Shown here one piece after another: positions 8,581 to 11,394 of a stretch of 11,394 bases of DNA. The notes below the pieces were generated by a model, which worked only from the letters and a program-made list of their open reading frames with translations, was not told the origin of the DNA and ran no database searches. Source of the stretch: a virus (Duplodnaviria; Heunggongvirae; Uroviricota; Caudoviricetes); IMG/VR virus record IMGVR_UViG_2663763232_000009. One strand, written 5' to 3'. A program made the translations under genes and the position numbers. Each line of letters starts with the position of its first letter. Positions within the stretch are counted from its first letter, which is position 1.

Positions 8581-9416
8581 TGCAGCGTTCCTGGTTTAAT
8601 AACCGGCTTACATCAGCTAAGCAAAAGTCATTGCTCTATAAATCATTGGCTGATTTGGTTCAGTCAATGATGGACACCTTTGTTGACCCATGGTTGGAGC
8701 GAATTACCAACCGGAAGTCTATTTTCTCTATGAGCAAGGAGGATCTGGAGACCAGGACAAATGAACTTGGCCAGTTCTTTACTATCAGAACGTCGAACTC
8801 ATCTTCTGTTCCGATGTTGTTACAACAGCGTCTTGATGAGATTCACTTTAAGGGGACTGAACGCCCTATAAACCAGACAATTTACCGCGAATTTAACGGT
8901 ATTTCTGTTTTATGGGATCCGATATATGCACCGGTGGACCTTGAGCGTCATCCCTATGGCACAGTTCTAATACCAGAAAGCACACTGGAGACTACCGGCG
9001 GCACATTCGGCGAGATGTTTCTGACTTCCAGAGGGATGATCAGTATTCCCATAAACGACCTGGCCAGGACAATGGGTATTACTGGCACGATAGATCAGTC
9101 CGCAATTACAGAAGAAATTCTCAGAAAGTTTAATCAGTTCGTAAAGCCTCTACTGCCACTGCATATAGTGTTTGATGGGCTTACGCTCTATTTGTCGGTT
9201 GTTGTAAATGAACATGCCGACATGATCACTTTGAACGAGATTTCTGATACCGAAAAAGCATTCTGCTGGTTTGAAACTTCGGATACAACTTCGCTTACTG
9301 GAGTTACGTCGATTAGCGCCCCGATCACCGCAACGCCTGGTGGCACTATTGTGAAAGCGACACCTACGTTTGATCGCACACGCGCAGATGATTTGTTGCT
9401 GGATAGCGACGCCTGA
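8580..9416 (+). CDS. Baseplate / tail-fibre attachment protein (278 aa; GpI-like candidate by position)
   Basis: ATG 8580 overlaps the upstream TGA (GTGATG), with a strong GGAGGAG RBS at 8568-8574. GTG 8577 is an alternative start. Function is inferred from position between the baseplate-type gene and the fibre genes. Confidence 0.45.
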   Translation: MQRSWFNNRLTSAKQKSLLYKSLADLVQSMMDTFVDPWLERITNRKSIFSMSKEDLETRTNELGQFFTIRTSNSSSVPMLLQQRLDEIHFKGTERPINQTIYREFNGISVLWDPIYAPVDLERHPYGTVLIPESTLETTGGTFGEMFLTSRGMISIPINDLARTMGITGTIDQSAITEEILRKFNQFVKPLLPLHIVFDGLTLYLSVVVNEHADMITLNEISDTEKAFCWFETSDTTSLTGVTSISAPITATPGGTIVKATPTFDRTRADDLLLDSDA

Positions 9417-9444: not shown

Positions 9445-9494
9445 CAAGTTACTTCTCTTACAATGAGGCTTCACAACATTGATTAGGGAAAATC

Positions 9495-9929
9495 ATGTCT
9501 GACGTCTCAACAAACCTCTATAAGAGTCAGTTGTTGGACTATTACTATCAGCGGCGCGCTGAATCGTCCATTAACAAAGGCTCTCGATTTTTAATCAGCA
9601 AGGCCGTTTTCGGTACCAGTTCACTGGTTACTAAGAAAGGAGATGGCACTTATGAGATTGGAGAACTGCCAAAGGCTTTCGATCTGGCAGAACTGACCAG
9701 TCAATTTTGCACCATCAACCTCGTCCCAACCTACTCAGGCGGGATAATTACTGTCCGAATGGACCTTGATCAAAGCCAGTTGCAGGAAGGGAAAAACTAC
9801 CCATTCAACACTCTGGTTGTTCTGGATAACGAGAACAAGCCAATCGCCATTATTTGTGTCCAGGAAGACTCGCTGTATGTGGGCAAAACATATACCGCAG
9901 TTATGGCCATAAACACGACTACAGCATAA
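9495..9929 (+). CDS. Small tail-fibre-associated protein (144 aa) immediately upstream of the tail fibre gene
   Basis: ATG with an AGGGAA RBS. Its stop lies 11 nt before the fibre start. The position matches gene R of P1-type fibre operons (R-S-U), but no motif was recognised. Confidence 0.55.
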   Translation: MSDVSTNLYKSQLLDYYYQRRAESSINKGSRFLISKAVFGTSSLVTKKGDGTYEIGELPKAFDLAELTSQFCTINLVPTYSGGIITVRMDLDQSQLQEGKNYPFNTLVVLDNENKPIAIICVQEDSLYVGKTYTAVMAINTTTA

Positions 9930-9940
9930 GGATATGCTTG

Positions 9941-11394
9941 ATGAATGACGTTACAGTTGTCACATCGGTTACTTACCCATCACCCGAGTCGTTGGCTCTG
10001 GTGGCTGATGTGCAATACCACGAACCATATCTGTCAGCCGCGCTAAACCGAAAATTCAGGGGGATTGTTGACCCGGGATTTTATGCCGGTTTTTTACCTA
10101 AGCCTGGCGGTGGGATGAACCTGTTAATCACCTCAGTGGATGGTGATAAAACCGCAGGCGCGGCGTCGGTGGATATTGGTGAATTCTACCAGGTAACTAT
10201 TCAGCAACGTAAGGATATTTCTCTTGCACTTAGTGCAGGCAAGAAATATGCAATTGTGCTGAAGGGAAGATACCTCCTTGGAGAAGATACCTATCAGGTG
10301 AATACCGCGTCACATATTCATGCGGCTGAATTTGTTGCCAGAACCTATACCGATTCATATCAGTTAGGAGATGGGGAGCTGCTTGTTTGTACGGTGAATA
10401 TCCCTGCTGGTGTATCTGCTATTACCCAGGAGATGATTGATACATCCGAGCGTATCAACCGCACGATCGGCATTGATATTTCAGACTCTGTAACCAGTAC
10501 CAGAAGTGATGTTGCTGCAAGTTCGCTGGCAGTTAAAAAAGCCTACGATCTGGCGAAAAGCAAGTATACGGCGCAGGATGCAAGCACAACGCAAAAGGGA
10601 TTAGTTCAGCTCAGTAGCGCAACTAACAGCGACAGCGAAACAATGGCGGCTACCCCTAAAGCTGTTAAGTCTATAAAAGATCTGGCTGATACCAAAGCGC
10701 CAATAGAAAGCCCGAGTCTGACAGGAACGCCAACAGCGCCGACGGCAGCGCAAGGTACAAACAGCACGCAGATCGCAAATACAGCCTTTGTTAAGGCAGC
10801 TATAACTGCACTTATCAACGGTGCGCCTGGCACACTGGATACGCTGAAAGAAATAGCGGCTGCGATCAATAACGACCCGAATTACAGCACAACTATCAAC
10901 AATGCCTTGGCTCTCAAAGCGCCTTTGGCAAGCCCTGCATTAACGGGTGTCCCTACTGCGCCTACGGCTGCACAGGGCACAAACAATACGCAGATCGCTA
11001 CGACTGCTTACGTACGGGCTGCTATCTCTGCATTGGTCGGCTCATCACCTGAAGCTCTTGATACCCTGAATGAGCTTGCAGCAGCACTGGGCAATGACCC
11101 GAACTTTGCGACAACAATGACAAATGCGCTGGCAGGGAAACAGCCACTTGATGCAACTTTAACCGCGCTTGCTGGTCTTGCGACAGGCGCAAATAAATTG
11201 CCGTACTTTACCGGTACAGACACTGTTTCTCAGACTGACTTAACGTCAGTTGGTCGCGATATTCTGGCCAAAACAAGCGTTCTTGCTGTTATCCAATACC
11301 TTGGTTTGGGAGAAGCGGCAACGAGGAACGTCGGGACGGGTACCGGCCAAGTACCAGATATGAGTAGTTTTACAACGGGGCACTCTGGAGCAGC
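9941..11394 (+). CDS. S: Tail fibre protein, N-terminal and constant part (P1 S / Mu S / P2 H / lambda Stf family); 3' end beyond the window
   Basis: ATG 9941 with an AAGGA RBS. The frame is open to the end of the window (484 codons), which is why it is missing from the complete-ORF track. It has a unique N-terminal domain of about 200 aa, then the hallmark fibre motifs (TAQDASTTQKGLVQLSSATNSDSETMAATPKAVK; two copies of SPxLTGxPTAPTAAQGTNxTQIAxTAFV ... LDTLNELAAALGNDPNFATTMTNALAGKQP; then TLTALAGLAT ... RDILAKTSV ... YLGL). The symbol S assumes P1/Mu-type nomenclature. Confidence 0.85.
   Translation, partial: MNDVTVVTSVTYPSPESLALVADVQYHEPYLSAALNRKFRGIVDPGFYAGFLPKPGGGMNLLITSVDGDKTAGAASVDIGEFYQVTIQQRKDISLALSAGKKYAIVLKGRYLLGEDTYQVNTASHIHAAEFVARTYTDSYQLGDGELLVCTVNIPAGVSAITQEMIDTSERINRTIGIDISDSVTSTRSDVAASSLAVKKAYDLAKSKYTAQDASTTQKGLVQLSSATNSDSETMAATPKAVKSIKDLADTKAPIESPSLTGTPTAPTAAQGTNSTQIANTAFVKAAITALINGAPGTLDTLKEIAAAINNDPNYSTTINNALALKAPLASPALTGVPTAPTAAQGTNNTQIATTAYVRAAISALVGSSPEALDTLNELAAALGNDPNFATTMTNALAGKQPLDATLTALAGLATGANKLPYFTGTDTVSQTDLTSVGRDILAKTSVLAVIQYLGLGEAATRNVGTGTGQVPDMSSFTTGHSGA
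10694..11137 (+). repeat. Diverged tandem duplication (2 x 222 nt, 74 codons) inside the tail fibre gene: the phage tail fibre repeat
   Basis: Unit 1 at 10694-10915 and unit 2 at 10916-11137 are both in frame. They encode KAPIESPSLTGTPTAPTAAQGTNSTQIANTAFVKAAITALINGAPGTLDTLKEIAAAINNDPNYSTTINNALAL and KAPLASPALTGVPTAPTAAQGTNNTQIATTAYVRAAISALVGSSPEALDTLNELAAALGNDPNFATTMTNALAG. Confidence 0.75.
11289..11314 (+). other. Candidate site-specific DNA-inversion crossover site (gix/cix/hix-like 26-bp imperfect palindrome) inside the tail fibre gene
   Basis: Sequence TTATCCAATACC-TT-GGTTTGGGAGAA: two 12-bp half-sites around a 2-bp core. The left half matches the recalled Gin/Hin half-site consensus TTATCNAAAACC at 11 of 12 positions. 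The reverse complement (TTCTCCCAAACC AA GGTATTGGATAA) resembles recalled gixL/cix sequences. It lies at codon 450 or so of the fibre gene, where constant and variable fibre parts join in Mu/P1-type systems. Confidence 0.45.

Follow-up and report, generated by a model that had tools for sequence, protein, structure and literature searches.

Phage P1 alternates between S and S' tail fibres, and hence between host ranges, by means of a documented switch (bioRxiv 10.1101/2022.07.24.501295). Its two variable fibre parts, Sv and Sv', both open with a long common inverted repeat, and the P1 record NC_005856 annotates a 'recombination site cixR; region of Cin recombinase binding' (36471-36490) and a 'crossover site within cixR' (36480/36481). 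In phage Mu the corresponding system consists of Gin and the G segment, where the crossover site gixL reads TTATCCAAAACC TC GGTTTACAGGAA and the constant part of the fibre comprises only 170 codons. Serine-invertase sites with different cores are not known to give stable recombinants.

Prophages of Escherichia coli carry related cassettes. The Pin/P-segment system of e14 in K-12 has a site beside stfP that reads CTCTCGAAAACC TT GGTTTGGGAGAA, and cassettes of the e14/Pin type are about 1.8 kb long, holding two tips and two chaperones with an adjoining pin gene. Pin-family invertases act in trans on e14, between prophages (PMC12529663). P2-like prophages (e.g. NZ_AP038810.1, NZ_CM141450.1) possess cassettes that are seen in both orientations, with exchange at a TT core; their outer half-site is TTCTCGCATACC and their constant part is a fibre of the P2 H type. 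A complete replicon with a comparable arrangement is the Salmonella IncY P1-like plasmid p16-6773.2 (NZ_CP039862.1, L027). Its S protein of 572 aa ends in a short gp53-like tip and is followed by two chaperone genes, a second tip and a 186-aa recombinase, with a 1855-bp segment between the cores and a cixL that reads TTCTCCTAAACC AA GGTTTAGGATTG.

The crossover site of the P1-like fibre gene

The window, meaning the whole stretch of 11,394 nt that was analysed, is the late tail/baseplate block of a P1-like phage-plasmid (Punavirus). Its plus-strand ORFs match P1 one for one and in the same order, sit-pmgA-bplA-16-R-S, with P1 counterparts for sit (3402-6794, encoding an SLT domain), bplA (7147-8580) and gene 16 (8577-9416), all on the plus strand. 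The window is 97.05% identical to P1 across 8.4 kb and 99.98-100% identical to the E. coli contigs L015-L024, which belong to a set of siblings (L005-L024) found by the window's R and sit proteins; relatives in this set encode a sit protein identical to the window's. Tail fibre gene S begins at 9941 on the plus strand and runs off the window end. Its constant part Sc, which includes the crossover core (9941-11302, plus strand), contains Pfam Phage_fiber_2 repeats and is 98.8% identical to P1 S/Sc; the annotated P1 Sc spans locus positions 7000-8360. In a megablast search against phage records, the fibre gene matched P1, P7, RCS47, SJ46, D6 and others.

A cixR-type crossover site lies at 11289-11314 on the plus strand, aligned with the annotated P1 cixR. 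It consists of a left (outer) half-site, TTATCCAATACC (11289-11300), a 2-bp core, TT (11301-11302), and a right (inner) half-site, GGTTTGGGAGAA (11303-11314), and thus reads exactly as quoted in an earlier sequence-only reading of this DNA. That reading had described imperfectly palindromic 12-bp half-sites with the left one a single mismatch from a type half-site, and both points hold: the left half is one position off TTATCNAAAACC, and the arms are complementary at 9/12. The architecture is that of a serine-invertase site, in which a 2-bp core separates a pair of 12-bp half-sites of the ...AAACC type with imperfect symmetry. Scored on both arms with the loose invertase half-site consensus TTNTCNNAAACC, the site reaches 17/18; no other position in the window attains 14/18, and none of 100 dinucleotide shuffles attains 16. 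It is also the sole match to its own sequence on either strand of the window at three or fewer mismatches, and 0/200 dinucleotide shuffles gave any match. No second invertase-type site was found in the 11.3 kb of the window upstream of it.

In S, the core occupies positions 2 and 3 of codon 454, in the stretch ...V I Q Y L G L G E..., which agrees with the placement roughly 450 codons into the gene that had been proposed. The same proposal put the site right after a conserved segment; the site does adjoin '...AVIQYLGL', but it overlaps the end of that segment rather than following it. When the P1 annotation is transferred, the cixR binding region falls at window positions 11292-11311 and the crossover point at 11301/11302, the boundary between Sc and the invertible C segment. 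The suggestion of a Cin/Gin/Hin-type crossover site is thus borne out by a positional orthologue, identical to P1 cixR at 24/26 positions, and the suggested junction of constant and variable fibre parts by an Sc/Sv boundary that lies exactly at the site.

Beyond its position in the same gene S and at the same Sc/Sv boundary, the window site shares with P1 the TT core and all 12 positions of the outer half. It departs from P1 in the inner half-site, which is GGTTTAAGAGAA in P1 and GGTTTGGGAGAA here (AAG in P1, GGG in the window). The latter is the inner half of the e14 site, so that the window carries a hybrid, TTATCCAATACCTTGGTTTGGGAGAA: its outer half is that of P1 cixR (12/12), and its core and inner half are those of K-12 e14 (14/14). 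Over its whole length the site is identical to that of e14 at 22/26 positions, yet the outer half-site and the entire constant fibre part are those of P1, not of e14. The P2-like prophage cassettes have the same inner half-site but differ in the outer half and the constant part. Mu gixL matches at 20/26 positions, with the same architecture, the same place in fibre gene S and an outer half one base away, but its core is TC rather than TT. The cixR of the IncY plasmid L027 is identical at 25/26 positions and preceded by sequence 97.7% identical to the window, although the tip allele there is different (GEAAKRDVGTGDNQIPDM... in L027 versus GEAATRNVGTGTGQVPDM... in the window). Judged by these alignments, 11289-11314 is the cixR of P1's own Cin C-segment switch, an already known system.

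The site very probably serves as the right-hand crossover site of a C-segment inversion switch in a P1-like phage-plasmid, by the mechanism established for the serine invertases Cin, Gin, Hin and Pin. A Cin dimer would bind the two 12-bp half-sites of cixR, which would pair with an inverted cixL a few kilobases downstream in a complex that includes the Fis-bound enhancer inside cin. Both sites would be cut at the TT core, the halves would turn by 180 degrees and the ends would be rejoined. Flipping of the segment would bring one or the other of two tips, both with an assembly chaperone of their own downstream, into frame behind Sc, and the phage would alternate between two receptor specificities. 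The mechanism is textbook, and the site would mark the place where a P1-like phage-plasmid swaps its receptor-binding tip and hence its host range. Such tips are of practical interest because P1-like elements spread resistance genes and serve as delivery vectors.

The fibre tip and strand exchange at the core

To the right of the core, the start of a variable fibre tip (Sv; 11303-11394, plus strand) encodes GLGEAATRNVGTGTGQVPDMSSFTTGHSGA... and ends with the window, so that the first 31 codons of one tip are visible. In 26 phage records, 610 E. coli replicons and 371 PLSDB plasmids, every match to P1-like sequence ends at 11314-11319. Over its last 80 nt the window is unrelated to P1 Sv or Sv'; the tip is neither of the two P1 alternatives. 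Instead, the final 92 nt match, at 96.7-98.9%, the fibre tips of P2-like (L004, L029, L030) and Mu/e14-like (L003, L028) prophages, and copies at the upper value of 98.9% are found in both prophage types. The tip was located in 205 chromosomal and two plasmid places, and neither plasmid is P1-like. Complete homologous tips are about 130 aa long with a gp53-like_C domain (Pfam PF21882). StfP-type fibres of e14 belong to the same short gp53-like_C class, but the StfP tip departs from that of the window after LGLGE. In relatives with the same tip (L003, L030), the order is tip and tfa, then tfa' and tip' on the opposite strand, an order also found in the P1-like plasmid L027 with its tip of the same family. 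By its sequence class, the window tip is accordingly the short gp53-like type of invertible prophage cassettes, not a P1 Sv.

The same tip is joined, at the same core, to three constant fibre parts, of the P1, P2 and Mu/e14 types. The first of these junctions was found in no P1-like record, and in no longer sequence, of INPHARED, PLSDB, complete E. coli genomes, IMG/VR, JGI metagenomes, GTDB representatives or the protein collection. An exact 42-nt scan for the Sc::tip junction gave no match in IMG/VR. In JGI metagenomes and GTDB genomes, exact scans at 34 nt and again at 28 nt were likewise empty. A shorter scan of 22 nt returned four IMG/VR contigs, which were rejected as the same junction since their outer half is TTCTCCAATACC and they represent other phages with other tips. 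At the protein level, a chimeric query that joined the end of the window's Sc to the complete L003 tip, compared with 5.8 billion proteins, found no fibre of P1 length with this tip, its top matches being prophage fibres of 226-332 aa; a 74-aa junction query gave 19 candidates, every one a short fragment, and the 484-aa partial S product was absent from the protein collection on exact look-up. The P1 constant fibre joined to a tip of the P2/e14 prophage pool is a combination with no earlier record. This pairing is the only new element, together with the hint, by extension, of cassette exchange at crossover sites.

Up to the core a group of contigs is identical to the window, and there it parts into five different right-hand continuations. 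A P1-type tip follows in L015, L019, L020, L021 and L023; the second continuation is the window's own tip; in L017, a related tip is interrupted by an IS66 element 27 nt past the site; L016 continues into a 0.93-kb segment; and L018 passes into an unrelated gene via a quasi-site. Both L016 and L018 are 100% identical to the window, Sc included, through 11302 and diverge directly afterwards. With a segment of a Mu-like chromosomal prophage (L026), the 0.93-kb piece in L016 shares 99.25% identity; this homology starts 3 nt beyond one core and stops 5 nt beyond the other, and the flanks either have no relation or reach about 70% identity. The L018 partner derives from CTTTTTCAAACC TT CCTTATTCGTGA, a quasi-site whose core is likewise TT, and only ACCTT at the joint is common to both parents. 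Likewise, the P2-like prophages L030 and L029 are inversion isomers of the tip cassette, with their half-sites swapped exactly at the core.

Stacking of breakpoints on the 2-bp core is the trace to be expected of strand exchange by a serine invertase, secondary sites included; the sequence comparisons indicate use of the site in this lineage, with exchange at that core. Use of secondary (quasi-)sites by Cin is known from the older work of Iida, Arber, Sandmeier, Kahmann and Johnson; the window and its siblings offer a clean natural example of breakpoints stacked on the core. Exchange at the core would also leave a hybrid site such as that of the window, with its outer half from P1 and its inner half from an e14 or P2-like prophage. 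Together with the occurrence of the tip on three constant parts and the L016 homology that ends at both cores, the hybrid site raises the tentative proposal that Cin/Pin-type invertases may also move whole tip cassettes, at crossover sites, between the plasmid prophage and chromosomal prophages. The Pin-type invertases of related prophages (L003, L004, L014) are identical to the Cin of the window's relatives at 145-149 of 186 positions, and the recombinase of the P2-like prophages is of another lineage (145/186 in L004). If cassette exchange does take place, it would open a shared pool of receptor-binding tips to P1-like phage-plasmids.

Partner site and invertase in close relatives

The window ends 80 nt past the site, which places the partner site, the second tip, the chaperones and the invertase out of sight; within the window there is no ORF for a cin-type serine recombinase. 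The earlier reading had made a host-range switch depend on a partner site and an invertase gene in the DNA downstream. Close relatives extend further. The sibling L015 (CP034659.1), with 2 mismatches to the window in 11,314 nt, continues with a P1-type tip, U, U', Sv' and a partner cixL, TTCTCTTAAACC AA GGTTTAGGATTG. L016 and L017 have shorter segments, and their cixL reads TTCTCCCAAACC AA GGTTTAGGATTG. Across the three contigs, cixL takes the form TTCTC(TT/CC)AAACC AA GGTTTAGGATTG, inverted, with a core AA complementary to TT. After cixL, all three encode a 186-aa protein of the resolvase family (PF00239 and PF02796) that is identical to P1 Cin at 185/186 positions, and the annotated 72-bp P1 enhancer is 97.2% conserved in them. 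An intact cixR and an inverted cixL are both kept in L015 and L017, which are 99.98% identical to the window.

Some members of the lineage have lost the switch or carry a damaged one. Sc is joined to an unrelated gene in L018; in L016 it presently continues, by way of a degenerate inner half-site, into a truncated chaperone gene; and the tip of L017 is the one broken by IS66. On balance, the neighbourhood seen in the relatives suggests that the molecule from which the window derives probably still has its partner site and cin just past the window end.

Competing explanations and the contig end

The alternative that survives best, though it is unlikely, holds that the P1-like element is joined not to an intact P1 C segment but to an invertible cassette belonging to a P2-like or Mu/e14-like prophage that resides alongside it. 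This could have come about in two ways: an invertase may have fused the replicons, or the assembly may have joined or broken sequence where two elements have a repeat in common; in either form Sc would read into the prophage cassette, and the nearby invertase would be the prophage's own. Fusion of genomes by the Cin system of P1 appears in the older literature. In keeping with such a junction, 205 of the 207 places of the tip are on chromosomes and none is on a P1-like plasmid, and the closest copies reside in P2-like and Mu/e14-like prophages. Two draft contigs, L005 and L014, pass from P1 Sc directly into P2-like tail genes. They were rejected as clean site-specific fusions to P2-like prophages, as their second site has the core GA, not TT, a mismatch that makes misassembly via shared internal sequence at least as likely.

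The position of the window end bears on the same question. Contigs with the window's sit gene are mostly 5-20 kb long, and short-read contigs of P1-like elements routinely end just beyond the crossover site, which matters for pipelines that process them. The sibling contigs examined end 55, 30 or 20 nt into sequence common to both ends of the P1 segment, which is their own repeat, fitting assembly with k = 55, 31 and 21. The window itself ends 99 nt after the point (11296) at which it becomes alignable, with one mismatch, to the P2-like junction, and 99 is a k often used by assemblers. For a flank of the cin-side or e14 type, the corresponding distance is 97 nt. Should the window be an entire contig, the sample most likely held two copies of the tip sequence, one of them perhaps on a prophage living alongside. 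A population of mixed orientation would instead have broken the contig at about 11315. The window may, however, simply have been cut from a longer sequence. Against a prophage junction it also counts that no more than 12-26 nt are common to P1 and prophage junctions, so that a k-mer graph with k above 26 could not join them without real reads across the joint, and that none of the chromosomal copies seen is identical to the window tip, all having 1 or more differences in 92 nt. Moreover, short tips of this family also occur on complete P1-like plasmids such as L027, which makes a P1-borne cassette of the window's tip type ordinary.

It is improbable that the site is a frozen relic, preserved for the conserved ...IQYLGLGE... 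peptide after the partner or cin was lost or damaged and the tip became fixed. The site does lie inside coding sequence, the LGLGE motif is common to many fibre types, and there are damaged relatives (L018, L009) and degenerate outer sites (L016, L026). A relic, however, fits poorly with half-sites that both retain the invertase consensus, including at positions silent for the protein, with the retention of both sites in L015 and L017 and of an intact cin in L015, L016 and L017, or with the different right-hand partners of otherwise identical contigs, which point to recent use of the site.

Mosaicism is well known in fibre genes, and the foreign tip could in principle have arrived by ordinary homologous or microhomology recombination in the LGLGE-coding stretch, with the coincidence at the core incidental. 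Between D6 and a D6-like plasmid prophage closely related to it, divergence is greatest in the tail fibre inversion region (PMC6799933), and the breakpoint in the window can be placed only within 12 nt, ATACCTTGGTTT (11296-11307), that are common to both parents. Such an origin is nonetheless improbable, as the breakpoints of the siblings are much tighter and include the core: the L018 joint and its quasi-site have five nucleotides in common, and the 99.25% identity of L016 with L026 is confined to the interval from just after one core to just past the other. A chance palindrome is ruled out by the shuffle controls.

Returning to the reading of the site as cixR, the genes immediately upstream also follow P1. 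Gene R, encoding the P1 tail fibre protein R, lies at 9495-9929 on the plus strand, where P1 R is annotated at the equivalent position, and a protein identical to the window's R has Pfam family PF26881 (Phage_P1_tail_fiber_R) on record. Upstream of R and S, at 9446-9464 on the plus strand, AAGTTACTTCTCTTACAAT differs from the annotated P1 late promoter LPs by one mismatch and occupies the equivalent position; it is a putative late promoter, with its function taken from the P1 annotation. R is the first gene of the R-S-U late operon, which reads through the crossover site.

Invertible segments shared between phage types

An entire invertible segment is held in common by a P1-like element (L016 11284-12215) and a Mu-like chromosomal prophage (L026 6001-6932). 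The two 0.93-kb segments are 99.25% identical, and their homology stops no more than 5 nt from the crossover core at both ends, while the flanks outside the segment are unrelated or only ∼70% identical. At present, the constant part of the L016 fibre gene (Sc) runs into a truncated chaperone gene via a degenerate inner half-site, CATTTACGAGCG.

The tip found in the window is also carried by a P2-like prophage cassette, which is present in two deposited Escherichia coli chromosomes (L029 3487-5390 and L030 3487-5390). These copies of the same cassette lie in opposite orientations, with the half-sites swapped precisely at the core (TT/AA).

Sites of this type are widespread outside the P1-like elements. 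Four phage contigs from IMG/VR (L033-L036) contain a closely similar site, TTCTCCAATACC TT GGTTTGGGAGA(A/T), located at the junction encoding …LQYLGLG(E/D)… and followed by tips that are quite different. In one of the four, an inverted partner site is found at a distance of 1.85 kb.

Rearranged and damaged P1-like relatives

An unusual joint is found in L018 (11250-11320), a Logan contig (SRR21938464) that is 100% identical to the window through the core TT of the crossover site cixR. Beyond this core, the contig enters an unrelated hypothetical gene part-way along its length. The partner's parental sequence, CTTTTTCAAACC TT CCTTATTCGTGA, is found at L025 (NZ_CP034659.1 near 400657) and constitutes a quasi-cix site with the same TT core as cixR. 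In ATCC 98082, the hypothetical gene bearing this quasi-cix site lies ∼340 kb away from the P1-like block, both being encoded on one 454-kb replicon. Judged from these sequences, the L018 joint looks like a natural rearrangement by the invertase Cin at a secondary site.

Other relatives have been interrupted near the crossover site. In L017 (11255-13700), an IS66-family element is inserted within the fibre tip, 27 nt past cixR, and thereby knocks out the tip that occupies the expressed position. The C segment of L017 is otherwise intact and P1-like, retaining the alternative tip, the partner site cixL and cin. The closed E. coli chromosome CP178336.1 (L009 10447-11871) contains a P1-like tail block in which the S gene is truncated ∼30 nt past cixR and followed by a DUF551 gene, an integrase gene and host genes. 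This block is a P1 remnant whose break falls close to the core, not on it.

In two large draft contigs, L005 (226 kb) and L014 (289 kb), the P1 tail genes with Sc are followed directly by the tail genes of a P2-like prophage. The second site in these contigs has a GA core, which is mismatched to the TT core in cixR. Either the contigs were misassembled through common tip or chaperone sequence, or they are cointegrates.

Contig ends and variation elsewhere in the window

The short-read contigs L020, L021 and L023 terminate at their 3′ ends 55, 30, and 20 nt into a repeat that flanks the segment on its two sides internally, and the window itself ends 97-99 nt into sequence common to other junctions. 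These ends are the signature of assembly breaks, a pattern at the fibre segment that will conceal the switch in most draft genomes.

Contigs with an identical R protein differ in the length of their sit gene (window 3402-6794; sit genes of L005-L014), which encodes a putative tail ruler and transglycosylase. The sit product spans 1110, 1121, 1124, 1130, 1134, or 1246 amino acids in these contigs and 1140 in P1, which suggests indels in the repeat-rich portion of the gene. Positions 1-66 of the window have a second, inverted match (97%) in CP034659.1, which adjoins an IS1 copy and lies upstream of the P1-like block at a distance of 3.1 kb.
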